This document shows positions 7,997 through 24,114 of a DNA stretch of 44,578 nt, piece by piece (the first letter of the stretch is position 1; every line of letters begins with the position of its first letter). The stretch lies in assembly GCA_026776125.1 (NCBI GenBank), contig GCA_026776125.1_4343.1, one strand, 5' to 3'. A program made the translations under genes and the position numbers. Below the pieces are notes generated by a model, which saw nothing but the letters and a program-made list of their open reading frames with translations, did not search any database and had not been told where the DNA came from. This DNA comes from a phage.

Positions 7997-8129
7997 TACT
8001 CTTCTGATAACTTCTCCAGTACAAACGCCAGTTGCGCATTAGCGGCGTCTCTTTGCTGACGTAGCCGCAGAACCTCTTCTTCGAGTTCCTTGATACGTTT
8101 TTGCAATGCCGGAATTGGGGCTATGATGT

Positions 8130-8615
8130 TCACGCGGTTTCTCCGTGGTTTTTATGAAATCCGTAAGCAGCTTCCGCGGCTTTACGCGCGGCAACAGCTT
8201 CTCCAAAATCATCAAACTGTCCTAGATGTATTTTTCTTCTGTCGACTTTTATCTCTGCTACCCATTTGTTTCTTCTCTTTTCCCGCCATACACCAAGAGC
8301 GCCGCTAGTATTGTTTACCCCTATCGATGCGTTGCGGCTATTTTCAGTGTTGGTAACTTTCCGCAGGTTGCATATTCGGTTATCGGTTCGAATGTGATTG
8401 ATATGGTCTATCTGTTCCTGTGGGGTAAGTGGGTTATCTGGATTGCATATGTCCCATGCTAACCGATGTGCTAGTTCTAGTTTTCCGTTTATTCGGATAC
8501 GAATGTACCCCTCCCGCGGACAAAAACATCCGGCTTTCTTTCCAACAAAACCCCTACGTTTTGTTTCGACCCATGTGAAAATACCGGTTTCAGGGTCGTA
8601 TGATACCTTGCTCAT
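8130..8615 (-). CDS. HNH homing endonuclease with AP2-like DNA-binding domain
   Basis: HNH-type region (ELAHRLAWDIC...IDHINHIRTDNRICNLR...TNTENSRN) and AP2-like segment (WVAEIKVDRRKIHLGQFDDFGEAVAARKAAEAAYG). Confidence 0.7.
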   Translation of the reverse strand: MSKVSYDPETGIFTWVETKRRGFVGKKAGCFCPREGYIRIRINGKLELAHRLAWDICNPDNPLTPQEQIDHINHIRTDNRICNLRKVTNTENSRNASIGVNNTSGALGVWREKRRNKWVAEIKVDRRKIHLGQFDDFGEAVAARKAAEAAYGFHKNHGETA

Positions 8616-10036
8616 TTCTTACTCCTACGTTTCATATAATTAAGTAGTTCGTCCTGTACAGACCTTTTCTCATCTGTACGCGTGGCGACAACTTCATCAA
8701 GAGTATCTCGGGCTATTATTTGATAAATGAATACTGACCGTTTGTACCCAGATTGCATCTGCCTTACAGGACCTATGCGTTCGATAACCTGCAGATAATG
8801 TTCCAGGTTCCACCCCTGACTCATAAAGGCCATGTGGTGCCCGCCGTGTTGTAGCGACAGCCCGTGGCCCGCGGAGGCTGGGTGTATCAGGAGCATAGGT
8901 ATTTCCCCACGGTTCCACGCTTCCATCTGCTTGTTCCCCCTAGCGCCTTTGGCGAACGCCTGTGCCTGTGGGAATCGCTTAAGGATACGCTCCAGTTCGT
9001 GTTTAAACTGATAGGCTACCAGCAACGGCGCACCCTGCAACTCCTCAACAATCGACTCGAGCGCATCCAGTTTCGTGTCGTGCACTTTCTCCCAGTCTTT
9101 GGTCGCTTCGCCATCAGGCCCAGACACATATACGGCGCCGGAAGCAATCTGCAAACACTTCGACGTCTTCGCTGCCGCGTTAGCCGCTTCAACTTCCCCG
9201 CTCTCCAGTTCCGCGAATAACTTCTCCTCCATATCGATGTACGCCTGACGCGCTTTCTTCGGCAGGTCGATTTCAACCGGCACAATAATCGGCGCTTCAC
9301 AACCGAACCACTCGGCAGGGTCGATGGTCAGGCTGATGTCTTTCATCTTCTGATGAATCTCATTATCTGCACCCGGTCGCGCATGATACTCGCGAGCCAT
9401 AGCCGATTTACCTTTCTGTACCGAGTTAAACCAGCGGTCGGTGAATGCTGTGTACGAAGAGCCGAGGCGCTCGCCAGCGTCGATAAACCAGTTCTGACCC
9501 CACAAGTCTTTGAGGCCGTTTGGTGACGGTGTGCCTGTCAGGTTGATGAAACGCTTAACCTTTCCGAACGCAACCTTGCTGAGCGCCTTTGCCCGCTTGC
9601 TACCACCCGAACGGCTGCGGAACGATTTAAGCTTCGTGCTTTCATCGGCAACGATAACCGTAAAAGGCCAGTCGTCTTTGCCGTAGTAGTCAATTAGCCA
9701 CTCGATAACTTCGTAGTTAGTGCACACCACGTTAGCGTCTGACTCCAGCGCCGCGATGCGGCGCTTCTCCGAACCGGTCGCATCGACGACACGCAGACAA
9801 GGGAAGTTCCATTTCTCTTGTTCTGCAGGCCACGTACCCGACGCAACACGCAACGGGGCGAGGATTAACACGCGGTCCTCTTCTGTAAGCTGCCCGTTGC
9901 GGAACAAGCGGTTTAACACCCACATAGTAGAGGAGGTTTTACCCCCTCCCATGCCACACCAGATATTACAGCGAGGGTGTTGCAGCATGAACGAAGTCAT
10001 GAGCTTCTGGTATTCGCGCCTTTGAAACTTACTCAT
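8612..10036 (-). CDS. SNF2-family (DEAD-like) DNA helicase
   Basis: Walker A GMGGGKT, motif II VIVADEST, SNF2 motif III LTGTPSPN. Confidence 0.75.
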   Translation of the reverse strand: MSKFQRREYQKLMTSFMLQHPRCNIWCGMGGGKTSSTMWVLNRLFRNGQLTEEDRVLILAPLRVASGTWPAEQEKWNFPCLRVVDATGSEKRRIAALESDANVVCTNYEVIEWLIDYYGKDDWPFTVIVADESTKLKSFRSRSGGSKRAKALSKVAFGKVKRFINLTGTPSPNGLKDLWGQNWFIDAGERLGSSYTAFTDRWFNSVQKGKSAMAREYHARPGADNEIHQKMKDISLTIDPAEWFGCEAPIIVPVEIDLPKKARQAYIDMEEKLFAELESGEVEAANAAAKTSKCLQIASGAVYVSGPDGEATKDWEKVHDTKLDALESIVEELQGAPLLVAYQFKHELERILKRFPQAQAFAKGARGNKQMEAWNRGEIPMLLIHPASAGHGLSLQHGGHHMAFMSQGWNLEHYLQVIERIGPVRQMQSGYKRSVFIYQIIARDTLDEVVATRTDEKRSVQDELLNYMKRRSKK

Positions 10037-10737
10037 TTACCGCCCCCATGAATGCCTTTATAAATTCAGCGGCTACTTGCGGGACGATGGCATTGCCGTA
10101 ACCGCGCAATCGTCCCACTCTGGCGGGTATCCCATTAGCCAGCGGGAATGTGCTGGGTTCAACTGGCCGGAACTTTCCATCCTTGCGTATCACTGTCACC
10201 CCGCTGCCTTTGAAGTCGTTCGCTGTCGGTGTAGGCCAATTGGTGTGCGCCAAAGAACAGTCTGTCGCGTTTGTGCGGTGCGCCGACGCTACAAGCTGGG
10301 AGTACGGCAAACCCGACGGCGTAGTCTTCTCCTTCCAGGTGAGTTTGTAAATCGCACATCCACGATTTTGCAATTGCTGGCGCAACCTGTTCCCCAAAGA
10401 GGACTGGAGGGTGGCACTCGCTGATGAGGTCGAGGAACACAGGTGCGAGGTGTCTCGGGTCGAACTGTCCGAGTTGCTTTCCTGCCGCGCTAAACGGTTG
10501 GCAAGGCGGGCTTCCCGTCCAGATAGGCGTATCTTCCGAAACTCCCGCAAGTCTGAGCGCGAGAGGCCAGCCGCCGATACCAGCGAAAAAATGACACTGG
10601 GTGAACCCGTCGAGGTCTTCTGGCTTAACTTCGGTAATGCTTCTTTCATCTACAACTCCAAAAGGTATATGACCCTGTTTTATTAGTTCACGCAGCCACG
10701 CGGCTGCGCCTTTATCCCATTCGTTGTAATAGTTCAT
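10029..10737 (-). CDS. DNA (cytosine-5)-methyltransferase, split across two reading frames (frameshift near 10240-10250)
   Basis: ORF 10159..10737 carries motif I FAGIGG, motif IV PCQPFS, motif VIII-like [10 protein letters not shown]; the +1 frame (ORF 10029..10649) carries the C-terminal motif [19 protein letters not shown]. Confidence 0.6.
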
Positions 10738-10925
10738 TTCGCCACCAGAACTAACTCTTTACGCCCGAATGCCGTAACGTTACCGGTTACATCTTCGATA
10801 ACCAGTTTACCGTTTGACTCGACGAATACCGTATCAACGGCAACAGGGCGGCGGGTCTTAACGTTGAAAATCATGTCGCCAGGTACGATGTCGCGGGCTG
10901 GTTTGCGGTCATATTCGTGTTTCAT
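10734..10925 (-). CDS. Hypothetical protein (63 aa)
   Basis: ORF with ATGA overlap to downstream MTase gene; preceded by class I promoter element. Confidence 0.4.
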   Translation of the reverse strand: MKHEYDRKPARDIVPGDMIFNVKTRRPVAVDTVFVESNGKLVIEDVTGNVTAFGRKELVLVAK

Positions 10926-10955
10926 TTCCCAATTCCTTATATTGTTGGTGTGTGA

Positions 10956-11258
10956 TTAACTATAATAGTTCGCTATTAGGTCGTCAATCTGTTTAAACGA
11001 ACCTACGACAAAAACATTTGCACCACGTCTACGCATCCGCTCATGCTCTCGTAACTGGTGCGGGTCTGGCTTCGTGTTTTCGTCTTTCTTAACCTCGACA
11101 AACCAGATTATGCCGTCGGGGAGAATTACCAGCAGGTCGGGCGCTCCGTTTCTACCCTCATACACTATCTTACGAACGAGGCCACCAATGGCCTCGAATC
11201 GGTCTTTTGCGTATTTCTGTATTTTGCCCTCAGGCGTACGCATCCACACACCCCTCAC
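10956..11258 (-). CDS. VRR-NUC domain nuclease (PD-(D/E)xK fold)
   Basis: GAPDLLVILPDG...IIWFVEVKK pattern typical of VRR-NUC. Confidence 0.6.
   Translation of the reverse strand: MRGVWMRTPEGKIQKYAKDRFEAIGGLVRKIVYEGRNGAPDLLVILPDGIIWFVEVKKDENTKPDPHQLREHERMRRRGANVFVVGSFKQIDDLIANYYS
10959..10987 (-). promoter_or_regulatory. Sigma70-like promoter, class I (TTGACG-N17-TATAGT on minus strand)
   Basis: Hexamers with 17-bp spacer read on minus strand; near-identical copies at 14527 and 17467. Confidence 0.45.
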
Positions 11259-11324
11259 GTTTCGTATGTTCAGTACCGCAGCGCGGACAGATTCGACAGT
11301 CTTCTTCGTAGAACCGGTAAATTT

Positions 11325-11456
11325 TCATTCCAGCACCCACAGATAAATTGCGATGAACATGCCCAATATGGCAACCATCATGCCGTATTGACCCTCGTGA
11401 CAGTAGACACCTGCGGCAAATCCCGCCAGTACCGCGATAATCAGTTTACTTAGCAT
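11325..11456 (-). CDS. Small hydrophobic peptide (43 aa), not in ORF track
   Basis: ATG-initiated ORF translated by hand (MLSKLIIAVLAGFAAGVYCHEGQYGMMVAILGMFIAIYLWVLE); overlaps the 3' end of the polymerase gene. Confidence 0.3.
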   Translation of the reverse strand: MLSKLIIAVLAGFAAGVYCHEGQYGMMVAILGMFIAIYLWVLE

Positions 11457-13617
11457 AGCGTTTTAACTCCTGACCTTCCGCTACAAGAGGGAACCCCTCC
11501 GCCCATTCTGGTAATTCGCACATCAATCGCTCAAGCTCTGCGACATTGTATTCCGGCGTATCTGGAGTTTCGCAGATAATCTCATCGTGGACATGAAGTA
11601 CAATTGGATAACCGTTTGCTTCAACGTTAAGTAGCGCATTAGCCAGCAAGTCACGGCACAGTGCCTGAGTGCAGTTTTCCACCAGTTTACCGGAGTAGGT
11701 GTACTGGAAGCCCCACTGCCTGGTTAACTGATTTTCACCCTGATACTTGATGCGCACGTTAGTAGAAACTTTTCCGTCTTCGTCTGTCTCTTTTGACACG
11801 CTCAACCCGACGCCCGGGTATGACATAACGCGACCTGACGGCAACGTCATGCGCAACCACCAACCAGCGACTTTGTTGCCGTTGTTGTCTGTTTCTACGT
11901 TGCGAGAAAACTTAACCCCGCGAGGGCCAGCGGTGAACTCTTTCCCCGGATTACGGATTGCTGCCATAGCTGCGTCTTCAATATCGCGCCAGAATTGGAC
12001 TATTGCAGGATTAGCTTCCCGGTACATGCGCTTTAAAGCGTCACAGGTGCGCCAAACTTTCTTATCAAGGATATATGAGGGTCGGTCATCTTTTTCACCA
12101 GGACGTGGTGGTCGCTTGGCTTCCTGAATACGCGCCCATTCGTATCCGCGTGCGGTAGCGGCCCAAATATGGTCCGGGAATGTACTGTCTAAAGTGTTAG
12201 TCATGTCATTCAAATCAAGACCTAAGTTTTTAGCAAACGTGACGAAAGCACCGACGCCCCCCGCGTAGCCGAGTCCCAGAACCATTGCTTTGGCTATTTG
12301 TCTTTGGTCCTTTGTTACGGCTTCATATGCAACATTGAACACCGTTGATGCGAGTTTCTTATACACATCAACCCCGTTTACAAATACTTCGATTAAATCG
12401 TCTTCACCCGCCAGCCACGCAAGACCGCGGCCTTCGACGTTAGAGTAATCGGCAACGACAAACTTATGCCCTGCTTCCGGTATGATGCAACTGCGAACCG
12501 TCGATGCCGTTAGCTTGGCTACGTCAAATCGGCGGTGCGCACGGCCCTTAAGTAACGCAGAAATGCCTTTATCCAGTTCATCATCATGATAGTACCCGCG
12601 CGCCAGGTTCTGCGGCTGGAAGCCTTTACCGGCAAATCGTAATGTACGCTTAGCTCCACCGTACTGGATACAACCGCGGCGTCGGTCGTCCGACGAGCGG
12701 CCTAACAGCAGCGGGTTATATTTCGTGGACGCTGTTGACGCGGCCCCGAGGCGCATTTCGATAATCATCCGGGCGTCGTCCGGTAAATCATCATCTGCCA
12801 ACAGGTCATTCAGCGTCGACTTCTGCGCGTTGTGGATTCGATGCGCAGGTGCCAGTTCACGCAGAATCGGAAGGAAGTCTTTACCAGTAAGAGAGCCGCC
12901 ATATTTGCGTTGGGCTTCTTCCTGTAACTGCGCCTTGTGTTTCTCTACGGCTTCAATCGCGGCTTCCGCCAGTGCGACGTCAACCTTAAACCCACGGTCA
13001 TTGATTAACTGGTCCAGTTCCAGTACACGGTCCTCGAACTCGGAGTTACCCCAACGCGGTAGCTTATGGAAGACTTCACGCATAGCAGTAATGTCGCTTA
13101 CGGCGTATTTGATGAACAGCGCCCACTCGTCAGGGTGAGTTTCTGCGGTGTAGCGGCGGATTTTGTAGTTCTTCGGCGCCGGTTTAGAGAAACGCTTAAT
13201 CAGAGCCTTGCCGCGTTTATCTTTCGCGTTGTCTGCAGACACGCCCAGCACTTCGCACAGCGCATCAAGAGAACCCGGCAGCGCGTGACGGAACGCCCAA
13301 ATCATAGTATCAATGGTGTTACTTACCGGAATATCAAAGCCCCAGCAGTGTTTCATGATTAGGCGATCGAAAAGTCCACCGTTGTGCCACACCATCTTGA
13401 TGCGGCTGTTGGGCTTAACAAGGCGGCGCAGTGCGCGGTGCAAATCCCCCGGCATGTCGCTGCCGTCGGTGCAATCCCATACCTGTACAGGCTCGTCATC
13501 AAAAGCATAGGTACAGATGAGCACTTCTGTAGTCGGATGCTCGGCGTAAGCATAGGAACCGACTTTCTTTAAATCGGCTTCGGAGAATGTTTCAAAGTCC
13601 AGGTATAAGTAGCTCAT
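11446..13617 (-). CDS. Family A DNA polymerase with N-terminal 3'-5' exonuclease domain
   Basis: Exo I motif LDFETFS; motif A VADYSNVEGRGLAW; motif B RQIAKAMVLGLGYAGG; motif C HVHDEI. Confidence 0.85.
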   Translation of the reverse strand: MSYLYLDFETFSEADLKKVGSYAYAEHPTTEVLICTYAFDDEPVQVWDCTDGSDMPGDLHRALRRLVKPNSRIKMVWHNGGLFDRLIMKHCWGFDIPVSNTIDTMIWAFRHALPGSLDALCEVLGVSADNAKDKRGKALIKRFSKPAPKNYKIRRYTAETHPDEWALFIKYAVSDITAMREVFHKLPRWGNSEFEDRVLELDQLINDRGFKVDVALAEAAIEAVEKHKAQLQEEAQRKYGGSLTGKDFLPILRELAPAHRIHNAQKSTLNDLLADDDLPDDARMIIEMRLGAASTASTKYNPLLLGRSSDDRRRGCIQYGGAKRTLRFAGKGFQPQNLARGYYHDDELDKGISALLKGRAHRRFDVAKLTASTVRSCIIPEAGHKFVVADYSNVEGRGLAWLAGEDDLIEVFVNGVDVYKKLASTVFNVAYEAVTKDQRQIAKAMVLGLGYAGGVGAFVTFAKNLGLDLNDMTNTLDSTFPDHIWAATARGYEWARIQEAKRPPRPGEKDDRPSYILDKKVWRTCDALKRMYREANPAIVQFWRDIEDAAMAAIRNPGKEFTAGPRGVKFSRNVETDNNGNKVAGWWLRMTLPSGRVMSYPGVGLSVSKETDEDGKVSTNVRIKYQGENQLTRQWGFQYTYSGKLVENCTQALCRDLLANALLNVEANGYPIVLHVHDEIICETPDTPEYNVAELERLMCELPEWAEGFPLVAEGQELKRYAK

Positions 13618-13778
13618 TTCTTTTTCCTTAAATCCAGTGCCTTAGTTTCGCTGAGTCTTATTTTCATACAATCACGGCAAATCCACACATGCCTGTACCC
13701 GGCACGGTACTCATCCGCGTACCACGGAAGTGACTTCATATATCGGTATACGTGCTTACAGAAAAACATCATTTTCGA
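13614..13778 (-). CDS. Small Cys-containing protein (about 54 aa), not in ORF track
   Basis: Hand-translated ORF (MMFFCKHVYRYMKSLPWYADEYRAGYRHVWICRDCMKIRLSE...) with stop overlapping the polymerase ATG (ATGA). Confidence 0.3.
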   Translation of the reverse strand, partial: SKMMFFCKHVYRYMKSLPWYADEYRAGYRHVWICRDCMKIRLSETKALDLRKKK

Positions 13779-13828
13779 CCCTTAGTAAAAAGACCCAATG
13801 AAGGGCCTTAGTTAAATTGATTCAGATA

Positions 13829-14458
13829 TTAGCGGCGGCGACGTTCGCGGCGCGGTGCTTCATCTTCTTCGTCGTCTTCCAGGTCGTCGGTGCTCGCTAC
13901 TACACTGGAGCCGCCGAAGCGTTTACCTTCGCCCATATACTTGATGCCGAGGATGGTAGCGCACAGGTTTTTCCAATCTTTGTGCCACCATAGCTCTACA
14001 GATACGTTTGCGACACATCCGCTATATACCTGCTCGCCTTCTATTTCCTTCCCGTCGATGTTGAAATCAGGCTCTGTTTGTTTTTCACCTTTAGCCGATG
14101 TCATAATCACCGGTTGGCGGTTGTTAGTAGCACGGAAATACAAACCTTCTTCAAAATCCTCAATCGGATTGTCACGCATTGCCAGGTCGCGTACGCAGCA
14201 TTTGTCTGCGTGGTGGTCTACTCCGTAGTTGGCTTTCATCCATTTTTCAGCAGCAGCGGTCCCGATTGCCTCCGTTACAACTTCCAGCGCGGTGTCGTAA
14301 AGCGCGTCGATTTGAGGGTGGTCAGGCTGCATAAGAACCGTAACCTGATATTTGCCCTTAATCAGTTTACCGGTTTTCTTGTCCTCAGAGTCGGCAGCTC
14401 GTTCGAATACGTTAACCCATGCAGTGTTTACTTTACGCAGATTCAGTTTAATACCCAT
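13829..14458 (-). CDS. Hypothetical protein with acidic C-terminal tail; possible ssDNA-binding protein
   Basis: 209-aa ORF ending DDLEDDEEDEAPRRERRRR; position in replication operon; function is inference. Confidence 0.3.
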   Translation of the reverse strand: MGIKLNLRKVNTAWVNVFERAADSEDKKTGKLIKGKYQVTVLMQPDHPQIDALYDTALEVVTEAIGTAAAEKWMKANYGVDHHADKCCVRDLAMRDNPIEDFEEGLYFRATNNRQPVIMTSAKGEKQTEPDFNIDGKEIEGEQVYSGCVANVSVELWWHKDWKNLCATILGIKYMGEGKRFGGSSVVASTDDLEDDEEDEAPRRERRRR

Positions 14459-14526
14459 CGTGATTTCTCGCTTTTCAGTTTATATTTCAAAGTTTACTCC
14501 GGGAAGCTGCCCGGCCAGTGATTAGA

Positions 14527-14555
14527 ACTATAATAGCTAACTATTCAGGTGTCAA
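14527..14555 (-). promoter_or_regulatory. Sigma70-like promoter, class I (TTGACA-N17-TATAGT)
   Basis: Near-identical to elements at 10959 and 17467; about 65 nt upstream of gene start at 14458. Confidence 0.45.
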
Positions 14556-14803
14556 CCCTTCCAGCCAGTTATTTTCTCAACTATCTCGATATATTTGTTA
14601 GGCCATTTCATGCTGTTTATGAATCGAAGCGCCTGTGTCTTCCACGATTTATCACTCAGGATGGCTTCTATGTCGCGAGTTTGCGCTATGCATACCGTAA
14701 TACACATTAAGATAAATGTTGGTAGCGTTAGGGGTAGCATAAGAACCCAGAAAACAATACACGCCACAAAACCGCCAATTACTCTGAACATTTTACGAAT
14801 CAT
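14552..14803 (-). CDS. Small membrane protein
   Basis: Hydrophobic segments (FVACIVFWVLMLPLTLPTFILMCITVCIA); ATG at 14803 forms ATGA overlap with upstream gene. Confidence 0.4.
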   Translation of the reverse strand: MIRKMFRVIGGFVACIVFWVLMLPLTLPTFILMCITVCIAQTRDIEAILSDKSWKTQALRFINSMKWPNKYIEIVEKITGWKG

Positions 14804-16041
14804 TCTAAATCCTCCTCTGTTACCTGATTCCACTCAGGACGCTTGTCGTCTGCCGTTGCAACACATGGCGCGCCGGGCTTACGAGTAATAAAGTCTTTCA
14901 GTTCTTCTTCCGGTATGACTTTAACAGCTTCGGTAGGTGACATGAGCACTTCTTTAGTCAGCTTGTCGCCGTAGAGTTCTGTTACTTTCTCCGCGTCTTT
15001 CCATGCACGATTACCCGGGCGGCCTTCAACCAACTTGTAACCAGGAACTTTCTTACCTGAATGCAACGCGGCCGCCATAGCTTTCTCAACCTTGTCGATG
15101 TGCTGGCGCAACAGCGGCAACTTCTCATACTCAGCTACGAGTTGCTCCGGCGTCAGTTCCAGCACAAAGTCGTCTTCCAGTTCTTCCGCCAGTACAGAAT
15201 TAACCGTCTTTGTACGCGCAGCGCATTGTTCAGAGAACCGGCACCACTGACAACCATCTACCGATGGCTTGAAGTCCGACGCTTTCAGGTTCTTCTTGCC
15301 ACGGAAATACGCATCAAGCGCTAACAGCGCGCGTTTCTGTGCGAACTTAGCGAACAGTTCCAGTCCTTCAACCGAGATGTCCCACTCTGTCGCGCCCCCA
15401 GCGTAAGGCTGGAAGATGACCAGACGAACGGTTGTTATGTTATAACGTCTCTTGAGTCGACGATAAACACCGAGAGCGTAAAGCATAAGCTGCTTGTTTT
15501 CTTTCGCTTCGACGCGATGCCGCCCGGTTTTCAGGTCGCCGATAATGAGCATGTGCTCGTCGGTGTTTGCCAGTTCCTGGACAGCAACGAGGTCAGCGGT
15601 TCCGAACGTCTCAACGCCTTCATACCCCGGATGCAATACCTCAGTAAGATTGACACGCATTTCCAGCTTGGCGTAAGTCGCTACGTCTATAATCGCTTTG
15701 CAGTAGTCGGTGTACTTGCGCACCTGCTCAATCATGTCCGCCGTAATCAGTACCGCGCCTTTCATCGGGCTGATTAGCGCCTTAATCTGACCTTTGCCTT
15801 CATCCAGTACGTAAGCGCCGACTTCACGCTCCAACGGCAACGCAGTGCCGCGTATATAGGCGTTGAGATGGACCTCAGCTATGGTGTGCATGGCGGTCCC
15901 CGTAACGGCAGCTTTACCTGACGTGTTAGGAATATCTTTTTCACAGGCCAGTGATGCACTGCACGTCAGCCACTTCTTAGCACCTGACGGCGACAATAAG
16001 GCGTGCACATCATTATTGCCACCGCGTTCTTTTAGAATCAT
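14800..16041 (-). CDS. PD-(D/E)xK exonuclease, Cas4/RecB-like with Cys cluster
   Basis: IGDLKTG...QLMLYA nuclease-type motifs; cysteines at N-terminus (LTCSASLAC) and C-terminus (CQWCRFSEQC) suggest an Fe-S cluster; ATG at 16041 preferred over GTG at 16056. Confidence 0.6.
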   Translation of the reverse strand: MILKERGGNNDVHALLSPSGAKKWLTCSASLACEKDIPNTSGKAAVTGTAMHTIAEVHLNAYIRGTALPLEREVGAYVLDEGKGQIKALISPMKGAVLITADMIEQVRKYTDYCKAIIDVATYAKLEMRVNLTEVLHPGYEGVETFGTADLVAVQELANTDEHMLIIGDLKTGRHRVEAKENKQLMLYALGVYRRLKRRYNITTVRLVIFQPYAGGATEWDISVEGLELFAKFAQKRALLALDAYFRGKKNLKASDFKPSVDGCQWCRFSEQCAARTKTVNSVLAEELEDDFVLELTPEQLVAEYEKLPLLRQHIDKVEKAMAAALHSGKKVPGYKLVEGRPGNRAWKDAEKVTELYGDKLTKEVLMSPTEAVKVIPEEELKDFITRKPGAPCVATADDKRPEWNQVTEEDLE

Positions 16042-16310
16042 GCTCTGTTCTCCCACTGGTCAATTAAATGTCGTGTCTTATGGTCGCAGTGCATGGCCCA
16101 CCCATACATCGACTCGAAGACATAAAAGTCAGGCTTGGCGAAAGTTGTGCGCTTAATCTGTGACACGTGACGGCCTATATCTTTAGGCCGTGGTACTTTT
16201 CCTAAGTACGCCATCTCTTCCATCTGGTGCGCACCGGACGGAGCACGCAATAGCCATAGCGCCTCTGTGTTATCCCGCCTGTCGACGGCTCGGTAGAGTT
16301 GGTAAATCAT
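16038..16310 (-). CDS. Hypothetical protein (90 aa)
   Basis: ORF in operon with ATGA coupling. Confidence 0.4.
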   Translation of the reverse strand: MIYQLYRAVDRRDNTEALWLLRAPSGAHQMEEMAYLGKVPRPKDIGRHVSQIKRTTFAKPDFYVFESMYGWAMHCDHKTRHLIDQWENRA

Positions 16311-16642
16311 TTACCCTCCTCATGCGTTCTCAAGAAGACAATCATAGCGGCGCGTAGAGGGTTTTTGCCGATAACGCATTCGTCGCCAGCGTAAATCATA
16401 CTGGTGGCGTCTCCGGTAATACCGTCAATAACCGCATTATCCGGTAAAGCAATCCATTCTGAATCGGTAGCTACAATCGAGATGTTGTTACCGGTGATAA
16501 CAGGCCATGCGTCTTCCACGCGGTTGCAATAATCAACATCACCAGAAGCTAACTCCATCTGATGCCCTCGCGAAACATTACCGTATAGTGCGCGGCTAAC
16601 CCGTGCGTTAATTTCTATGTCTGTTAGATTTTCGTAGTTCAT
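16307..16642 (-). CDS. Hypothetical protein (111 aa)
   Basis: ORF in operon, overlapping stop/start with neighbour. Confidence 0.4.
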   Translation of the reverse strand: MNYENLTDIEINARVSRALYGNVSRGHQMELASGDVDYCNRVEDAWPVITGNNISIVATDSEWIALPDNAVIDGITGDATSMIYAGDECVIGKNPLRAAMIVFLRTHEEGK

Positions 16643-16685
16643 AATTCCGACCCTCAGTTAAAGCGGCCCGAAGGCCGCGGGATAG

Positions 16686-17186
16686 TTATTCTTCTTCGAA
16701 ATACTTGTTCTTGATTGCTGTCAGGCGTTCCAGGTACTCAGCCAGGTCTTCGTCTTTAATCGCGGCAATCTTCATCTTCTTACCTGTGAACTCTTCCAGC
16801 AGTTCATCAGAATCATCGCACGCGGCATCGCTAGGACCTTCATTAATTGCATCGTCGATGGCCTGAATCTGGTCACGCAGAGACTTGTAATCGACTTCTT
16901 CTTTCTCTTCTTCCGGTTCTGGCGCAGGTTCCTCTACTTTAGCTTTACGCGGCTTGCGTTTTGGCTTCTCTTCCTCCGCCGGTTTAGTGTCAACTACGTC
17001 TTCACCTTCTACCGGGATTTCTTTTGTTGCTTCTTCAGCGCACTCAGCTACCGCTTCTTTGGTGTACGATACCGTCTCTACTTCCAGCGGCGCGGCAACC
17101 TGAACAACTTGTTTCGCACTGTTCGCGGCAATCAGTTCATGTGCAACTACGAAACGTTCCAGCAATACTAAGAATTTCTCTAACAT
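16686..17186 (-). CDS. Highly acidic hypothetical protein (166 aa)
   Basis: E/D-rich with a K/R-rich patch (EEEKPKRKPRKAKVEEPAPEPEEEKEE). Confidence 0.4.
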   Translation of the reverse strand: MLEKFLVLLERFVVAHELIAANSAKQVVQVAAPLEVETVSYTKEAVAECAEEATKEIPVEGEDVVDTKPAEEEKPKRKPRKAKVEEPAPEPEEEKEEVDYKSLRDQIQAIDDAINEGPSDAACDDSDELLEEFTGKKMKIAAIKDEDLAEYLERLTAIKNKYFEEE

Positions 17187-17210
17187 TTGTTTCTATCCTG
17201 TTTGTGTAAG

Positions 17211-17438
17211 TTACTCACCGTCGCCTTCAGTAAGGCTATCGTCTATTAGTTCAAATTTACCGTTTGAGTGTTGAATAGCTTCTTGCCCGCAATGGTCACA
17301 GACAACAAGTTTATCGAACCCATCAAACTCATCCCCTACTACGCAAGAAAGTACAAATTTATGTTTTGTGCACACTTCTTGCGGAGCGCCGAAAATTGCT
17401 CGAAAACCTTTAGCTATGGCCCCAGTGATTGTGTTCAT
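17211..17438 (-). CDS. Small Cys-containing protein, possible zinc-binding (75 aa)
   Basis: Cys pairs C..C and CDHCG; first gene downstream of promoter at 17467. Confidence 0.4.
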   Translation of the reverse strand: MNTITGAIAKGFRAIFGAPQEVCTKHKFVLSCVVGDEFDGFDKLVVCDHCGQEAIQHSNGKFELIDDSLTEGDGE

Positions 17439-17466
17439 ATCTGCCCCTCTCGTTTGGTATGGGCTA

Positions 17467-17495
17467 ACTATAATAGCGAACTATTCACATGTCAA
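17467..17495 (-). promoter_or_regulatory. Sigma70-like promoter, class I (TTGACA-N17-TATAGT)
   Basis: Hexamers and spacer nearly identical to elements at 10959 and 14527. Confidence 0.5.
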
Positions 17496-17559
17496 TGGGC
17501 TTTTCTAAAATAATTAATATGGTACTATTCACATATCAACTGACTAAGGAGTAATTGAC

Positions 17560-17775
17560 ATGCAACCATCTGAACTAGGCATCCGTGTAGAACAACGCCG
17601 CAAAGAACTCGGCATCTCCCAGCGCCGTTTGGCGGCCCTGACCGGCGTTTCCCAGGGCGCGATTAACCAACTGGCACTTGGAGTAACTCAGGACGTCCGC
17701 CCGGCAACGCTGTTCAAACTGGCGGAAGTTCTGGAAGTAGACGCCAAGTGGCTGGCGTTAGGTGAAGGGGCTTAA
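17560..17775 (+). CDS. XRE-family (Cro/CI-type) helix-turn-helix transcriptional regulator
   Basis: LGISQRRLAALTGVSQGAINQLALG HTH signature; RBS AAGGAG upstream. Confidence 0.75.
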   Translation: MQPSELGIRVEQRRKELGISQRRLAALTGVSQGAINQLALGVTQDVRPATLFKLAEVLEVDAKWLALGEGA

Positions 17776-17790
17776 AGCCCCTTTCTTTTT
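17764..17790. terminator. Hairpin terminator (aggggct-taa-agcccct + T-run), likely bidirectional
   Basis: Stem-loop plus TTTCTTTTT overlapping stop of 17560..17775 and 3' end of 17793..20051. Confidence 0.55.
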
Positions 17791-17792
17791 AC

Positions 17793-20051
17793 CTATTCCA
17801 AATCCTCCTCTGTCACCACCAGCATCTCATTTGGTTCGTATAGTGTCTTCGGCCTTAATCTATCCCCTATTCTTTCGGGTATACGATATGTTCTCGGTAC
17901 TACTTCGCCGTTAGCATCGCAACCAAGCATTAGTTCTCCATCTTTCAACATTTTATCAAGATGGGTGTTAGTCACAGAGAAGTCACCGGAACGAGCCACT
18001 ATCTGCTGCTGAGTAAAACCGCGACCTGTGTCATCTGACTGTTGCAGGTCTTCCAGTGCCGAAAGTATTGACTCCTTCCTTACTTCATCCCTGCCGCGTT
18101 TAACTTCTTCCTTTACTTTTTGCTTACCTTCTTTCGTCAACCCTTCTTCCCGCTCTTTCTCCTCGTCAGTTTTGAACGGCTCGAAACCCCACGGCATCAA
18201 CACAAGCGCCTTGTGTGGTTCAGGCAGGTCCAGGTTTACGATTGTGCCGTATTCCTCTGTGCTACCCAGGAACTCAACCGCTCGGTATTCTTTAGGCGGC
18301 GGCGCTTCACGGAACTGTACCGACTCCAGCACCATGCCAACCGTCTTCTGCTGAGGCCCGTGCTTGAATTTCGAGTGATATACGTTTATCTGACGGTCGG
18401 TTGCACGTTCGATTGTCAGTTCCACGTCAACACCCGCATACAGCGCCCCACTGCCGCGTGCTTTCTTTCCACCCTTCGGCGTATGGTGGACAACGCCTAC
18501 TGCGGCTTTAGTTGCATCGCGTACTTCTTTCAGAATGGCGATAACTTTACCCATGCCGATTGCTGTTGATGAACTGTTCTCGTCGAACTTATCAATCGTC
18601 AGGGCCAGCGTCTGGTTAAGGGTGTCGAAGGCAACCATGCCAATAGGTTCATCCCCTGCGGTTTCGCGCATCCTGCGGATTAGAGCTGGAATTTTTTTAT
18701 CACCATGCGTAGCGAGTATTTCGCCCGTATCGATGACATGTACATAATCTTTACCTTCCTCGCCATATTTAGCCGCGAGTGCATCAATACGTGTTCGTGT
18801 AGCTGCACCACCCTCGCCGTCAATATAGAAATGGTGGCAACGTTGGGTGTCAGCCCCCGCAAACCGGTACCCGGCGGCGCTCAGGTACATCATCCCCAGC
18901 GTATAGAATGATTTGTACGTGCCGGATTCCCCGACAATATCCCAGATACAATCCGACGGCATGTACCCCTCAACGACGAAATCAGCCTTTACCGGTTCTG
19001 GTAACTCGTCCTCCTCTGAGTCCTCGTCGTCTTCCAGGTCGTCGAGGCTGCATGAGACAGATTCACGCGCCCCCCAACCGATGGCCTCTGCGACTTCACT
19101 GAACGGCAGCCCGGTCGCATCGCACGCGTACTTCCACACCTCTTTCGGTGACAGGCCTTCTGTCGCCGTAATGTCTGTGTCGTGAATCATGGTTACGTTT
19201 GGCGCTTCATACCCCTCGCGCGGGAAGCACAGCAGGAAGTCGTCCGGGCGCGGTGTCGGGTCGCTGTAGTTTTCGGCATGTTCCGGTGTGGCTGGCATCT
19301 TAAGGCCGCGCGGCGTCATGACGCCGCCGTACTCAAACGCCAGTGCTTCAAACGCGTCTGTAAACGCGGTGCGCAGTTCTTCCGGTATCTGGTAATCCGA
19401 TGCGCTGCTAACGTCAACGGCTGGGATGCCTTCCAGTAACTCGTTCGGGTCGATCAGGTCGTTGCGGCGCGACCAGATAACGGTAGCGCCGACCGGCGGC
19501 AGGTACATCGGCTGCGACAGAGTGAACCCGCTGCGGTCCGCACCCATGCCTTTGAAGAAGTGCTCCAGCAACCCATGACGAACACGGATGATGTCACCAC
19601 CCTCCACCGGACGGGCCAGTGGCATTACGACGCGAAAGCGCGGTGACTCATCAGTATGTGATGCCGTGGTATAGAGGCACATGGCCCAGCGGCTGCGCTT
19701 AACCAGGCGCACCGCTTCCTGATACTCTTCCGGTGTTGTGCTGTCGAAATCCAGATAGGCCAGCGACGATTTGCTTACAGACGCATCGCAGCGGTAGAAA
19801 AAACCTTTACGCGCTTGCTTAAAGTCTCCAGTTTCCGGGTCTTTTACGGTGCTGTGCGTTGAGTCGCACGCGGCGGTGATATAACCGGGCGCGGTCTTAG
19901 GGTTAATCCCGTCGCGAACGGCATCGAGCGGCTGGATTAACTCTTTCAGGTCGTCCAGTGTTGCCGTGTGTGCGGTTCTGACATTTATATCCTTTTTTCC
20001 CGCCCGCGCGTTGCGGCGTGACCACGAGTAGGATAAAATTACATCGGACAT
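17793..20051 (-). CDS. Primase-helicase: N-terminal primase-polymerase-like region plus RecA/DnaB-like ATPase
   Basis: LAYLDFDS (DxD-type motif) in N-terminal half; Walker A GESGTYKSF and Walker B-like VGVVHHTPKGG in C-terminal half. Confidence 0.6.
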   Translation of the reverse strand: MSDVILSYSWSRRNARAGKKDINVRTAHTATLDDLKELIQPLDAVRDGINPKTAPGYITAACDSTHSTVKDPETGDFKQARKGFFYRCDASVSKSSLAYLDFDSTTPEEYQEAVRLVKRSRWAMCLYTTASHTDESPRFRVVMPLARPVEGGDIIRVRHGLLEHFFKGMGADRSGFTLSQPMYLPPVGATVIWSRRNDLIDPNELLEGIPAVDVSSASDYQIPEELRTAFTDAFEALAFEYGGVMTPRGLKMPATPEHAENYSDPTPRPDDFLLCFPREGYEAPNVTMIHDTDITATEGLSPKEVWKYACDATGLPFSEVAEAIGWGARESVSCSLDDLEDDEDSEEDELPEPVKADFVVEGYMPSDCIWDIVGESGTYKSFYTLGMMYLSAAGYRFAGADTQRCHHFYIDGEGGAATRTRIDALAAKYGEEGKDYVHVIDTGEILATHGDKKIPALIRRMRETAGDEPIGMVAFDTLNQTLALTIDKFDENSSSTAIGMGKVIAILKEVRDATKAAVGVVHHTPKGGKKARGSGALYAGVDVELTIERATDRQINVYHSKFKHGPQQKTVGMVLESVQFREAPPPKEYRAVEFLGSTEEYGTIVNLDLPEPHKALVLMPWGFEPFKTDEEKEREEGLTKEGKQKVKEEVKRGRDEVRKESILSALEDLQQSDDTGRGFTQQQIVARSGDFSVTNTHLDKMLKDGELMLGCDANGEVVPRTYRIPERIGDRLRPKTLYEPNEMLVVTEEDLE

Positions 20052-20108
20052 GTTGTATTTCCTTCAGCAAGTAATTTGGCCTCGGCGCTCTAACGCTGGG
20101 GCTTTCTT

Positions 20109-20342
20109 TTATTCCAGGTCTTCTAAAGTGGCTGTCACCCCACGAACTTCGGCAACAGCACTATATCTCCCGCCAACATTTTTCACGACACCAGATTTAA
20201 CCAGCACCTTCAACGACCCTTCAATGATGGCGGAACTATAGTACCTAAAATAACTGCGGCGCAAGTCCATAACGCTGCACGACCCTTTTTTACGTGTTAC
20301 CGAAACAACCGCCGTAAATACGCGTGACTGGAACTCGGTCAT
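20109..20342 (-). CDS. Hypothetical protein (77 aa)
   Basis: ORF with ATGA overlap to upstream HTH gene. Confidence 0.4.
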   Translation of the reverse strand: MTEFQSRVFTAVVSVTRKKGSCSVMDLRRSYFRYYSSAIIEGSLKVLVKSGVVKNVGGRYSAVAEVRGVTATLEDLE

Positions 20343-20533
20343 TTTACATTCTCCTTAATCCACGCTTCTACTTTCTCCGGGTCGAACGTACCAGGCTGCC
20401 GGCGGCCCATAATACGGATACAACAATCCGGGAACTTCCCACTCTTTAACCAGTTATTCAGCGTGCGACGAGTAACCCCGATACGCTCAGCTACCTCATT
20501 CTGTGTCATTCTCAAACCCTCATTATCAGTCAA
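20339..20533 (-). CDS. Small HTH DNA-binding protein
   Basis: VAERIGVTRRTLNNWLKSGKFP HTH-like segment; first gene of leftward operon. Confidence 0.5.
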   Translation of the reverse strand: MTDNEGLRMTQNEVAERIGVTRRTLNNWLKSGKFPDCCIRIMGRRQPGTFDPEKVEAWIKENVK

Positions 20534-20857
20534 CGAAACTTAGTATACATTGCGAATAATGGGAAATCAAACATAATCGCACCTATTGACATTATGAAAA
20601 TCTTCGTTTAAGGTGCTTTTGTATCTTAGTTACTTTGATTCCTGTTCACCTTGTAAAACCGCTTAAAACGCAGCTGCGCGCAGCGCAAGCAAAGTGTTAA
20701 GCGAAAGTTTACTGAACATAAGAATTATCGTAACTTTCCTTCCTAAGTATCTCCGGTTGCCCTGGGCAAGCTCTATTCTCATCGGCAGCATATCTCTTAA
20801 GTATCTGATTTTCTTAATGTGCCGTAGATTCGCAACCGTAAAAATGTAACGATTATT

Positions 20858-20883
20858 GGGCAGGCTTAAGCCTGCCCTTTAGT
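20858..20883. terminator. Perfect 10-bp-stem hairpin (gggcaggctt/aagcctgccc) in divergent intergenic region
   Basis: Palindrome read in sequence; weak T-run after it. Confidence 0.4.
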
Positions 20884-20949
20884 TACCAAGTAATAAGAAT
20901 AAAGGCACAACCCTCCCCGAAGAATCACAACGGCAACGTAACTATTCTC

Positions 20950-20978
20950 TTGCACACCCCAACATAATAGGTTACTAT
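20950..20978 (+). promoter_or_regulatory. Promoter-like element, class II (TTGCAC-N17-TACTAT)
   Basis: Shared with 21751(+), 32092(-), 41325(-); followed by conserved leader CGAAACGAGA and RBS before 21013. Confidence 0.45.
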
Positions 20979-21012
20979 TCACTTATCGAAACGAGACATA
21001 AGGAATTTAGAA

Positions 21013-21231
21013 ATGAACAAAGCGACCGCAAGCGTAGTTTCCGCAATCAAACAAGTTTACGGCATCGATATTTCAGAGCGCGTAATTATCGGGAACAAAC
21101 GCAACTTCTTTACGTTCGGCACCGACGGTATGGATGGAAACGATTTTAACAACGTACAACGTTTCGCTATCGGTAAGGGGCTTCGTAATGAGCCCGCGGG
21201 TTACAAGAAATTCGCTATCTACTTTAAATAA
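21013..21231 (+). CDS. Hypothetical early protein (72 aa)
   Basis: ORF with RBS AAGGAA, downstream of class II promoter. Confidence 0.45.
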   Translation: MNKATASVVSAIKQVYGIDISERVIIGNKRNFFTFGTDGMDGNDFNNVQRFAIGKGLRNEPAGYKKFAIYFK

Positions 21232-21288
21232 ACCCACGGCGCCGAATCATGGCGCCAGTGCCGACGACTCTGAGGGAGGTTGCCGTTA

Positions 21289-21444
21289 ATGAAAATTCGA
21301 ATAACTGGCCGCAGGCTTATAGATTTCGGTATCTCGGTAGGTGATGTTTTTCTGGCGTTCAGCAGCAACCATTATGGTTTTATGATTGAGTACAAAGGGT
21401 CATTATTGTTCGTGTATCGGGATGAATGCGAGGTTCTGGTATGA
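21289..21444 (+). CDS. Hypothetical small protein (51 aa), not in ORF track
   Basis: Hand-translated; strong RBS GAGGGAGG upstream of ATG. Confidence 0.35.
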   Translation: MKIRITGRRLIDFGISVGDVFLAFSSNHYGFMIEYKGSLLFVYRDECEVLV

Positions 21445-21602
21445 GAGAAGCATTCGAACGGTGGGCCGTCGTCGATGGTCTGCCGGTTAATAAGGGTTCG
21501 AAGAAAGAGTACCTGAACGTTAAGACGCGTCTTGCGTGGCGGGCGTGGAAAGCTGGTGCGCAATATCGGGCCGGTGTAACAGGCGGTGTAACAGGTCAAT
21601 AG
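21441..21602 (+). CDS. Hypothetical small protein (53 aa), not in ORF track
   Basis: Hand-translated; ATGA overlap with upstream ORF. Confidence 0.3.
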   Translation: MREAFERWAVVDGLPVNKGSKKEYLNVKTRLAWRAWKAGAQYRAGVTGGVTGQ

Positions 21603-21750
21603 GTTACTATTTGTCTTTGTGTCTTACGCTGCTACACAGCAGCGTACAACTTTAACTTAGTGTCGTCAAAAGGCGACACTTCCATAAGACACTGTTGGGG
21701 CAGGGATAAAGTGTCCCCAGTTAGCGACACTAAGCACCAATAAAATTTAC

Positions 21751-21779
21751 TTGCACACTAGGATAGAATAGACTACTAT
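21751..21779 (+). promoter_or_regulatory. Promoter-like element, class II (TTGCAC-N17-TACTAT)
   Basis: Same architecture as 20950; followed by leader CACGAACGAGAGGAG. Confidence 0.45.
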
Positions 21780-21810
21780 TCATTTACACGAACGAGAGGA
21801 GATACGGAAG

Positions 21811-21960
21811 ATGGTTACTTTGATGGTTATGGAATTCGAAAACAGCGCAGCAACTTACCGTGAGATGACTATGGCGCAGGCGTATCACCTGGCCTCAAAC
21901 GGCAACTTCTACAAGGCGCAAATAATCAACGAGTTTGGGGTAATTGACTATGAATTTTAG
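21811..21960 (+). CDS. Hypothetical small protein (49 aa), not in ORF track
   Basis: Hand-translated; RBS GAGAGGAG upstream. Confidence 0.3.
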   Translation: MVTLMVMEFENSAATYREMTMAQAYHLASNGNFYKAQIINEFGVIDYEF

Positions 21961-22222
21961 CAGCTACACCGTTACCGTTGATTTTGAGGGGCTGGAGTTG
22001 CCCCTCCCCAACAACTACAGATATGTCACGCGCGACCGTAACGGGTTTATCCAGGGGTGGCGGAACAAACCGACAGATACTGAGTTCGGGATGTCGGGCG
22101 GCGAAGAGTTGCCTATCACTTTCGGGCATCAGAGTAGCAGCGAAGAGCTTAAAACTGTGATTCGTAAGTATCGCCGCCGCGGTAACACTGGGCTTATAGC
22201 AATAACAGGTGCTGTTGAATAA
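21950..22222 (+). CDS. Hypothetical protein (about 90 aa)
   Basis: ORF track 21944..22222; ATG at 21950 preferred over TTG at 21944. Confidence 0.4.
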   Translation: MNFSSYTVTVDFEGLELPLPNNYRYVTRDRNGFIQGWRNKPTDTEFGMSGGEELPITFGHQSSSEELKTVIRKYRRRGNTGLIAITGAVE

Positions 22223-22251
22223 GCGAGAGGAGAGACAAAGGTGAAAGAGCT

Positions 22252-22455
22252 ATGACCAGCATCTTATTTATCTGGGTATTGTCGGCGGGCCAGATGCAAC
22301 TAGCGGCATCAGAAACGTTTTACTCGATGGAGGCGTGCCAGTCAGCGGCACGCGCCGCAGAAAACGCGCACTTCCTGTTTCAGGGTGACAAGCCCATCGA
22401 TTCAGAGGTACGCGCTATCTGCTCACCTAAGAGACTTGGTAAACAGGAGAAGTGA
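22252..22455 (+). CDS. Small secreted protein with N-terminal signal peptide
   Basis: MTSILFIWVLSAGQMQLAASE hydrophobic leader followed by soluble Cys-containing domain. Confidence 0.45.
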   Translation: MTSILFIWVLSAGQMQLAASETFYSMEACQSAARAAENAHFLFQGDKPIDSEVRAICSPKRLGKQEK

Positions 22456-22640
22456 TTATGGTGCAGAGATATACCTACGACCAGATATTCGGGTTTACTC
22501 CTGATGTTGAGGGCGTGTTAGTGCTTTACGAAGATTACGCGAAACTTGAAGCTGAGTTACAGAAATACAAAGACCAGTACCCTGATTACGTCGAGTGCGC
22601 GAACTGTGGGTCGGTTACACATGTGGAGGGGGTGGAGTGA
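22452..22640 (+). CDS. Hypothetical small protein (62 aa)
   Basis: ORF with ATGA overlaps on both sides; CANCGS Cys pair. Confidence 0.4.
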   Translation: MIMVQRYTYDQIFGFTPDVEGVLVLYEDYAKLEAELQKYKDQYPDYVECANCGSVTHVEGVE

Positions 22641-22933
22641 TGTCGTTAGCAACTGACATCCTGAAACGAAGCGGCCTTGCGCCGCTGTCACCGAGAGCGA
22701 AGACACGTATACACAAGCGTCGCCGTAACGTGCTGTACCCAGAGATACAAGAACGGCGTAAAGCTATCCGCGCCTGTGGATTCCAGAACGGAAAGGCCGT
22801 GAATCTAGGAGAGTTTAAAACACAGGAACGCGCGGCAATCGCTAATCGGTTATTTAATTACTGGAAATCGCTGGGATACGATGATATTCCATCGAAACCG
22901 CAGAGACGACAATACATCTGGCGTCATAAATGA
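22640..22933 (+). CDS. Hypothetical basic protein (97 aa)
   Basis: ATG at 22640 with RBS GGAGGGGG, in frame with ORF-track entry 22595..22933. Confidence 0.4.
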   Translation: MSLATDILKRSGLAPLSPRAKTRIHKRRRNVLYPEIQERRKAIRACGFQNGKAVNLGEFKTQERAAIANRLFNYWKSLGYDDIPSKPQRRQYIWRHK

Positions 22934-24048: not shown

Positions 24049-24114
24049 CACATAAGACTAATCCGACGATACTTAAATCACCTCCTGCTCCATCCCTCTA
24101 CTCTCCAGTTTTAT

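Follow-up and report, generated by a model that had tools for sequence, protein, structure and literature searches.

434 Cro, P22 c2, SinR, HipB and the controller (C) proteins of restriction-modification (R-M) systems bind palindromes as dimers, and the operators of phage 434 are 14 bp long, with conserved outer arms and a variable centre. In phage P1 (C1) and mycobacteriophage L5 (gp71), one repressor uses many dispersed short sites, many of them over the promoters of separate operons. The element considered here is a 14-bp inverted repeat, AATAG-N4-CTATT, in the promoters of a virulent Escherichia coli siphovirus of the Kagunavirus type (subfamily Guernseyvirinae), whose nearly complete genome is held in contig GCA_026776125.1_4343.1 of GenBank assembly GCA_026776125.1 (44,578 nucleotides, or 44.6 kb; this whole stretch is "the window" in what follows). 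Attention centers on three minus-strand promoters, called class A or sites 1, 2 and 3, in which the repeat lies between the -35 and -10 hexamers. The explanation favored, with modest confidence, is that these are host sigma70 promoters carrying a 14-bp operator for a dimeric repressor made by the phage, the most likely binder being a Cro-like protein encoded next to site 3.

The likeness to Cro and cI of phages 434, lambda and P22 lies in the candidate itself, a small Cro/C1-type helix-turn-helix (HTH) protein of 71 amino acids (the same length as 434 Cro); in the site, at which binding is predicted and which has the geometry of the 434 operators (14 bp, variable 4-bp centre); in the overlap of the sites with the -10 or -35 hexamers of sigma70 promoters; and in the presence of two unequal sites between the regulator gene and a divergent promoter. 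The differences are that this phage is virulent, with neither an integrase nor a cI partner, that there are at least nine scattered operators instead of two tripartite clusters, and that both the recognition helix (SQGAINQ vs. QQSIQ in 434) and the operator arm (AATAG vs. ACAA) have other sequences. Dispersal of sites recalls P1 and L5, but the sites in those phages are asymmetric, and their repressors act in maintaining lysogeny and are unrelated to the proteins considered here; the present site is symmetric and belongs to a lytic phage. The R-M C proteins (C.AhdI, C.BclI), which the candidate matches in fold, are small dimeric XRE proteins with two unequal palindromes before their own gene and delayed, self-limiting expression; they act on their own operon only, whereas here the site recurs in many other promoters.

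The 8-kb region around the class A promoters shares ~91% identity with phages that include vB_Ec_DUEC01 and Bas70, and it matches 475 phage records, chiefly Salmonella jerseyviruses and Escherichia kagunaviruses. Gene order is the same as in the annotated relatives Bas70 and Schulenburg: the rightward part holds small genes and the lysis, packaging, head and tail genes, and a leftward block (~20500 to 8130) encodes the helicase-primase, an exonuclease, a Gp2.5/DUF2815-type single-stranded DNA (ssDNA)-binding protein, DNA polymerase I, a VRR-NUC nuclease, a C5-methylase and a helicase. A preliminary description of this DNA regarded the leftward region as one operon driven by the three promoters. 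This cannot be maintained: the helicase-primase unit has a separate promoter lacking the palindrome, and the convergent plus-strand regulator gene stands between that unit and site 3. Sites 1-3 are better described as internal promoters of a contiguous leftward array, since the genes upstream end inside or right at them: the stop codon of open reading frame (ORF) 14552-14833 falls inside the -35 hexamer of site 2, and site 1 lies within the final 12 codons of the VRR-NUC ORF, 10956-11258.

At all three places the minus strand reads TTGAC(A/G), a 17-bp spacer and TATAGT, just as first described (Table 1). Searching for TTGAC-N18-TATAGT returned exactly three perfect matches and one with a single mismatch, compared with 0.52 in shuffled sequence when one mismatch is allowed. 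In a generic sigma70 scan of positions 8000-27000, promoter-like sites were no commoner than in shuffles (17 vs. 17.9); sites 1-3 are among four sites that score 10-11 out of 12 and whose two hexamers are acceptable, the two best hits (11/12) being sites 2 and 3. Common to all three is TTGAC-N5-AATAG-N4-CTATTATAGT. The term "near-identical" originally given to them suits sites 2 and 3 (26 of 29 positions the same) but not site 1, which shares 22 of 29 positions with site 2 and 20 of 29 with site 3; likewise, the spacer core first proposed, ..TGAATAGTT.GCTAT, is found in sites 2 and 3 but not in site 1. The distance to the next minus-strand gene start, given as 30-65 nt, is close to the measured range of 29-69 nt. 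Judged by these features, sites 1-3 have the anatomy of strong sigma70 promoters, with a Shine-Dalgarno sequence and ATG downstream, and are predicted to be active.

The conserved core of the spacer is the inverted repeat, in which the arms are nearly invariant and the centre is free. It occupies the same register in all three class A promoters, -25 to -12, running from within the spacer to the first position of the -10 hexamer. If one mismatch is allowed, the palindrome occurs 12 times in the window compared with 1.10 expected, a count reached by none of 100 shuffles; nine of the 12 copies overlap predicted core promoters, and a weight-matrix scan sets a top group of seven sites apart from the remainder. 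The composite TTGAC-N5-AATAG-N4-CTATTAT is nearly restricted to this phage family: it was found in 72 stretches among 2.9 million viral contigs, 67 of them relatives of the window. Besides the class A register, the palindrome is found at -19 to -6 in promoters of the form TTGCAC-N17-TACTAT (class B), and over the -35 hexamer in TTGACT promoters. The three sites do not, then, make up a class apart, as had been supposed, but belong to a set of at least nine palindrome-bearing promoters on both strands and in three registers. With the palindrome in three different registers, all of them over the core promoter, an independent operator, occupied by a sterically acting repressor, fits better than a recognition element for RNA polymerase.

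What kind of molecule might read the palindrome? A hairpin formed by the arms alone would have a marginal stability of -1.2 to -1.5 kcal/mol, and arm mutants among the relatives (loci L021, L030 and L032) have no compensating change in the other arm; for these two reasons a protein site is more likely than a nucleic-acid structure, and a hairpin or cruciform, tried as an explanation, was rejected. Invariant arms, a free centre and a lack of covariation are, as a sequence pattern, characteristic of DNA recognized by a symmetric protein dimer. The earlier suggestion that the spacer is constrained beyond the needs of sigma70 and contains a regulator site is thus supported by comparative evidence. 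When compared by eye, the CRP, ArgR, IHF, sigma54 and sigmaS consensus sequences gave no fit beyond a half-site, and no known RNA families were found in the window at Rfam gathering thresholds.

Conservation was followed in 41 related loci around the helicase-primase gene, with orthologous sites located via flanking anchors rather than by the palindrome itself, to avoid circularity. Kagunaviruses have all three sites at orthologous places. Jerseyviruses, with a helicase 63-64% identical, have sites 1 and 2, and also site 3 with a single mismatch in the arms. Among site 2 orthologues, the arms are perfect in 23 of 28 distinct sequences and have at most one mismatch in 27 of 28; among true orthologues of site 3, they are perfect in 22 of 24. 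The 4-bp centre takes 5-10 different forms per site, and the DNA upstream of the site 2 -35 hexamer is almost unalignable, or nearly random, between relatives. Site 1 lies in coding DNA, where its arms hold the rare codons CTA and ATA with zero synonymous change, while the codon in its centre switches between N, S, D, G, H and R. One perfect copy, at 21598, belongs to no promoter; relatives have not kept it, and it provides an internal control.

Four further perfect palindromes (20966, 21767, 32091 and 41324) share longer flanks and make up class B. In each of these an invariant (C)TTGCAC stands exactly 17 bp from an invariant TACTAT, which is made up of the last two bases of the centre and the CTAT of the arm; about 12 nt past TACTAT there is a ACGAGAGG-type ribosome-binding site, followed by an ATG on the same strand. 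The orientation of class B is fixed by this series: invariant CTTGCAC, invariant TACTAT, leader, Shine-Dalgarno sequence and ATG. An initial assignment, in which these copies were oriented like class A (20961-81, 21762-82, 32089-109 and 41322-42) and read as late promoters without a -35 hexamer followed by GGGGTGTGCAAG, was dropped once the other strand was seen to give TTGCAC-17-TACTAT, leader, Shine-Dalgarno and ATG. In jerseyviruses the class B -35 hexamer is TTGACG or TTGGCA. In the third register, the centre TTGA together with an arm makes up the -35 hexamer TTGACT. At the site of the 24167 type, kagunaviruses have ACTAG-TTGA-CTATT and jerseyviruses AATAG-TTGA-CTAGT: each form always has a single mismatch, and the two forms have it in opposite arms. 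The other third-register element, 32182-32214, appears as HP1 in the table published for phage fBC-Eco01 (PMC9825357).

Table 1. Predicted promoters, palindrome copies and regulator genes in the window. Distances to ATG separate the end of the -10 hexamer from the next ATG on the minus strand.
Feature	Coordinates	Strand	Description
Site 1 (class A)	10987-10959	-	TTGACGACCTAATAGCGAACTATTATAGT: TTGACG, 17-bp spacer, TATAGT
Site 1 palindrome	10964-10977		TAATAG-CGAA-CTATTA; predicted start ~10952-10953
Site 1, downstream genes	10734-10925 (ORF)	-	ORF, then C5-methylase and helicase genes; ATG 10925, 34 nt past -10 hexamer
Site 2 (class A)	14555-14527	-	TTGACACCTGAATAGTTAGCTATTATAGT: TTGACA, 17-bp spacer, TATAGT
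Site 2 palindrome	14532-14545		AATAG-TTAG-CTATT; predicted start ~14520-14523
Site 2, downstream genes	13829-14458 (ssDNA-binding gene)	-	DUF2815/Gp2.5-like ssDNA-binding gene, then DNA polymerase I; ATG 14458, 69 nt past -10 hexamer
Site 3 (class A)	17495-17467	-	TTGACATGTGAATAGTTCGCTATTATAGT: TTGACA, 17-bp spacer, TATAGT
Site 3 palindrome	17472-17485		AATAG-TTCG-CTATT; predicted start ~17460
Site 3, downstream genes	17211-17438, 16686-17186 (ORFs)	-	Two ORFs, then exonuclease gene; ATG 17438, 29 nt past -10 hexamer
Class B promoter	20950-20978	+	Palindrome 20966-20979 (-19 to -6); precedes ORF 21013-21231 (+)
Class B promoter	21751-21779	+	Palindrome 21767-21780; precedes ORF 21811-21960 (+, DUF7170)
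Class B promoter	32092-32120	-	Palindrome 32091-32104; precedes ORF 31861-32064 (-)
Class B promoter	41325-41353	-	Palindrome 41324-41337; precedes superinfection-immunity-like ORF (ATG 41283, -) and phosphoesterase gene
Third-register promoter	24167-24195	+	TTGACT-N17-TATATT; one-mismatch palindrome ACTAG-TTGA-CTATT (24162-24175) over -35
Third-register promoter-like element	32186-32214	+	TTGACT-N17-TAAGCT, TGa before -10; upstream of spanin and head genes
Palindrome of the preceding element	32182-32195	+	AATAG-TTGA-CTTTT, one mismatch, over -35
Cro/C1-type HTH gene	17560-17775	+	71 amino acids; divergent from and next to site 3
Degenerate palindrome copy	17516-17529 (element 17510-17539)	+	AATAT-GGTA-CTATT, one mismatch
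HTH_17 (excisionase/MerR-like) DNA-binding gene	20339-20533	-	Likely true start ATG ~20509, not TTG 20533
ORF77	20109-20342		77-amino-acid protein; neighbor of HTH_17
HTH_17 promoter	20542-20570	-	TTGATT-17-TATACT; conserved, without palindrome, directly upstream of HTH_17/ORF77/helicase-primase unit

On family, geometry and location, the Cro-like protein is the most likely binder of the palindrome. It belongs to Pfam family HTH_3 (E 3.9e-13), its closest relatives of solved structure are 434 Cro (E 8.5e-6, full length) and the 434 repressor, and its AlphaFold2 model (predicted local distance difference test, pLDDT, 77.5) is a five-helix fold with template-modelling (TM) scores of 0.73-0.81 and 39-40% identity to 434 Cro, with further matches to SinR-N, R-M C proteins, HipB and P22 c2. 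Related phages annotate the 71-residue protein as Cro or as a transcriptional repressor, and its gene is syntenic in 41 of 41 related loci. The 120 bp between this gene and ORF 17211-17438 contain two copies of the palindrome, the perfect one in site 3 and the one-mismatch copy at 17516-17529. The latter has the TACTAT (17523-17528, plus strand) and TCACAT arrangement of class B and faces the regulator gene; TACTAT is the likely -10 hexamer of the regulator's own promoter; an alternative plus-strand promoter is TTCACA-16-TAAAAT, 17484-17511. By analogy, such a two-copy layout is typical of autoregulated repressors.

If the operator reading is correct, host RNA polymerase with sigma70 would fire the near-consensus sites 1-3 when the DNA enters the cell, each beginning a sub-unit of the leftward replication and recombination array. 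As the dimeric phage protein accumulated, it would occupy the palindrome between or over the hexamers and block RNA polymerase, turning down class A and class B promoters alike; repression is the sign of regulation that we infer. With the operator in the core of most other promoters of non-structural genes, the protein would act as a genome-wide shut-off or feedback repressor, and its own promoter, which has a weaker copy of the operator, would be repressed last, in the manner of Cro-like early shut-off but spread over many operators. The operator is on this account one part of a family-wide regulon, not the property of a special trio, and the kind of control, repressor-controlled sigma70 promoters, is a known one.

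Several points weigh against this explanation or against the Cro-like protein as the binder. A repressor with sites in nearly every promoter, two of them before late genes, is awkward unless the strength of a site grades its response. Neither start-site mapping nor a binding study was found in the literature for this phage family. CTATTATAKT, which consists of the right arm and -10 hexamer, recurs without the left arm in the 24167 promoter, and part of the conservation of the right arm may therefore be a promoter feature. Between the two genera, Kagunavirus and Jerseyvirus, the Cro-like protein has only 48% identity, with four of seven positions changed in the recognition helix (SQGAINQ vs. 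SQSLITH), although the operator arms are the same in both. HTH_17, the product of a gene at the start of the helicase-primase unit, is 84-88% identical between the genera, with an identical recognition helix. Finally, the more distantly related Salmonella phage St162 keeps the orthologous promoters (e.g., TTGACA-CTGAATTATTAAACTAT-TATCTT before the ssDNA-binding gene) and the Cro-like gene (41% identity), yet has no palindrome family, no HTH_17 and no ORF77, so that HTH_17 and ORF77 match the distribution of the palindrome no worse than the Cro-like protein does. Taken as a natural knockout, St162 shows loss of the palindrome but does not tell the two candidates apart.

These observations give some weight to a possible, if unlikely, variant, in which the operator mechanism is the same but the binder is HTH_17 or its neighbor ORF77, both made early from a promoter without the palindrome (its orthologue is annotated in Jerseyvirus PVP-SE2). 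A published Kagunavirus RNA sequencing time course, which assigns genes to classes too coarse to date sites 1-3 and the replication genes to "middle", lists a gene with an HTH domain as one of only four "early" genes (PMC12645636); its identity as HTH_17 was deduced from gene order. Other points count against this variant. Direct repeats are the usual targets of HTH_17 or excisionase-type domains of such a size, unless they work as monomers; no dimerization module is visible in the 56-64 residues of HTH_17, and comparison with solved structures gave no significant match. There is no palindrome near its own promoter, ORF77 matches no known family, and an early repressor of consensus replication promoters would make little biological sense. 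Homologues of the Cro-like protein and HTH_17 in other genomic contexts were also sought, but the word-indexed protein search gave close relatives only.

The control region of the Cro-like gene in St162 (locus L044, 9685-9760) has elements of its own: the -10 hexamer is overlapped by a 10-bp palindrome, GAGTATACTC, and there is an inverted pair, CTCACC(C)GG, whose members stand ~60 bp from each other. Neither of these occurs elsewhere in the intergenic DNA of that phage. These may be a local operator set for a Cro-like protein of different specificity.

A more ambitious and improbable reading makes the palindrome the pivot of a bidirectional early/late switch cassette that times the whole infection, a design undescribed for virulent siphoviruses. 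In the divergent regions near 20966, 32091 and 41324, a TTGCAC-N17-TACTAT promoter faces early or accessory genes; on the opposite strand, in the class A register, there is a TAT(A/G)TT hexamer with GGGG after it and no good -35, and these hexamers face the helicase side, the head genes and the tail genes. At copy 21767, which has genes on one side only, the second hexamer is degenerate (TCTATC). One protein on the palindrome, or competition between overlapping polymerase sites, could then switch the direction of transcription from early to late throughout the genome. Other candidates for late promoters were noted in the same regions: an extended -10, TGaTAGAAT (41360-41368, plus strand), ahead of the tail chaperone gene, and for the head operon the TTGACT-N17-(TGa)TAAGCT element at 32186-32214 (plus strand), ahead of the spanin and head genes. 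Beside the class B sites there is also a conserved TTGGGGTGTGCAAG block that could have this role for the late tail and head operons.

Must there be a trans-acting factor at all? The alternative is that the palindrome comes from shared ancestry or gene conversion of one promoter cassette, from a spacer preference of sigma70, or from hairpin formation in DNA or RNA. Class A and class B have similar flanks (TTGAyA-TG-TGAATAG and CTATTCACaT), suggesting one ancestral cassette, and the -10 hexamer shares its first base with the right arm. Each version encounters a difficulty, however: the arms are invariant over two genera while centres and flanks diverge, and gene conversion would homogenize the centres too; the left arm (-25 to -21) is not a known sigma70 contact; the hairpin fails on the stability and covariation already described; and the copy outside any promoter decays. 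This explanation is accordingly considered quite improbable, and the operator for a dimeric protein remains preferred.

Only a little less credible is the label the motif has had in print. The preliminary description had raised a phage-specific promoter class as one of its two options, in which a phage RNA polymerase, a sigma-like factor or a modifier of the host polymerase would read AATAG-N4-CTATTATAGT. The motif is the main repeated 20-mer found by the program PHIRE, and two genome papers label it in this way (PMC9825357, PMC7203180): the fBC-Eco01 paper lists seven PHIRE copies, with the consensus tgAATAGTa-ccTATTat-T, as promoters of a phage RNA polymerase (PMC9825357, Table S2), and the paper on phage Golestan lists seven PHIRE copies in its Table S4, including the site 3 element and the copy beside the regulator gene (PMC7203180). 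In the Jerseyvirus PVP-SE2 record (NC_073186.1), promoters predicted by phiSITE stand at the orthologues of sites 1, 2 and 3. All of these entries are software output, and the palindrome, its registers and a candidate binder are not noted in them; the "phage-encoded RNA polymerase" of PMC9825357 appears to be the default reading of PHIRE output, with no such gene annotated in kagunavirus genomes. The recurrence of CTATTATAKT beside the -10 hexamer in seven sites would suit a dedicated promoter class. This is nevertheless the weaker option: the palindrome shifts between three registers relative to good -35 and -10 hexamers; class A is already near the sigma70 consensus; St162 keeps promoters at the orthologous places but not the motif; the annotations of Bas70 and Schulenburg, with 83-85 genes, include neither an RNA polymerase nor a sigma factor, although many of the genes are small and of no assigned function; and neither was found among window ORFs of at least 90 amino acids, all of those longer than 300 being accounted for otherwise.

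Least probable of all, and close to negligible, is a loading site for an antiterminator of the Q or AlpA type that would make the polymerase resistant to downstream terminators: the lambda Q and Pseudomonas aeruginosa AlpA elements do lie between -35 and -10 (AlpA at -25 to -20), as the class A palindrome does (PMC9371919), and hairpins follow some of the promoters (e.g., 14499-14514, past site 2), but the AlpA element is a 6-bp asymmetric site for one protomer and not a symmetric 14-mer, AlpA is larger (DNA-contact residues up to 142) and grips the RNA exit channel (PMC9371919) while the candidates here are bare HTH domains of 56-77 amino acids, no good-consensus TAnnnT pause hexamer was seen by inspection at +1 to +25 of sites 1-3, and in other promoter types the palindrome lies over the -10 or -35.

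The only hit to the Pfam Antiterm (Q) family, faint and sub-threshold (E 0.022), was obtained for ORF 28-999 (minus strand, 323 amino acids), which is absent from that place in palindrome-bearing relatives. It lies between the tape-measure and the next tail gene and has CapR, DUF723/zinc-ribbon and T5orf172/MUG113 domains; a palindrome-like site is at 1007-1027. Neither Bas70 nor Schulenburg has an annotated gene there, and the ORF has the look of a mobile or accessory gene that was inserted.

The transcripts predicted to begin at these promoters have some features of their own. Past site 2, ~7-9 nt from the predicted start and thus at the extreme 5' end of the mRNA for the ssDNA-binding protein, there is a GC-rich stem-loop, CCGGG-CAGCTT-CCCGG (14499-14514, minus strand), kept in kagunaviruses, jerseyviruses and even the palindrome-less St162; it may be a 5' stabilizer or a translational operator. 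A shared A(C/T)ACCAA or AACGAGAGGAG-type block is present in many 5' leaders, among them those at 17440-17458 (minus strand) and 20990-21005, 21788-21803 and 24200-24215 (plus strand), and may simply be a preferred strong ribosome-binding context. Upstream of the 21751 promoter (21560-21750, plus strand), the direct repeat GGTGTAACAGG occurs twice at the end of ORF 21426-21602 and is followed by the non-conserved palindrome copy and by three successive hairpins within 150 bp of non-coding DNA. Between the convergent Cro-like (plus strand) and helicase-primase (minus strand) genes is a terminator hairpin of the former, 17764-17784, with the stop codon TAA in its loop; it has no T-run on the minus strand, and read-through from the helicase-primase gene toward site 3 is possible.

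No general concept would be changed by a dimeric repressor acting at these sites, since repressor-occluded sigma70 promoters are textbook biology. For this group of phages the consequences would be more specific. Of the phages isolated for therapy or for food biocontrol of E. coli and Salmonella, kagunaviruses and jerseyviruses are some of the commonest, and the "repressor" gene, whose presence regularly raises safety questions in these strictly lytic phages, would acquire a rational meaning. The published label of phage RNA polymerase promoters would be corrected, and the operator would offer a handle for engineering, in the form of timed payload expression or de-repressed mutants. If the explanation is true, one small repressor and one 14-bp site would control most of the non-structural promoters of the subfamily.

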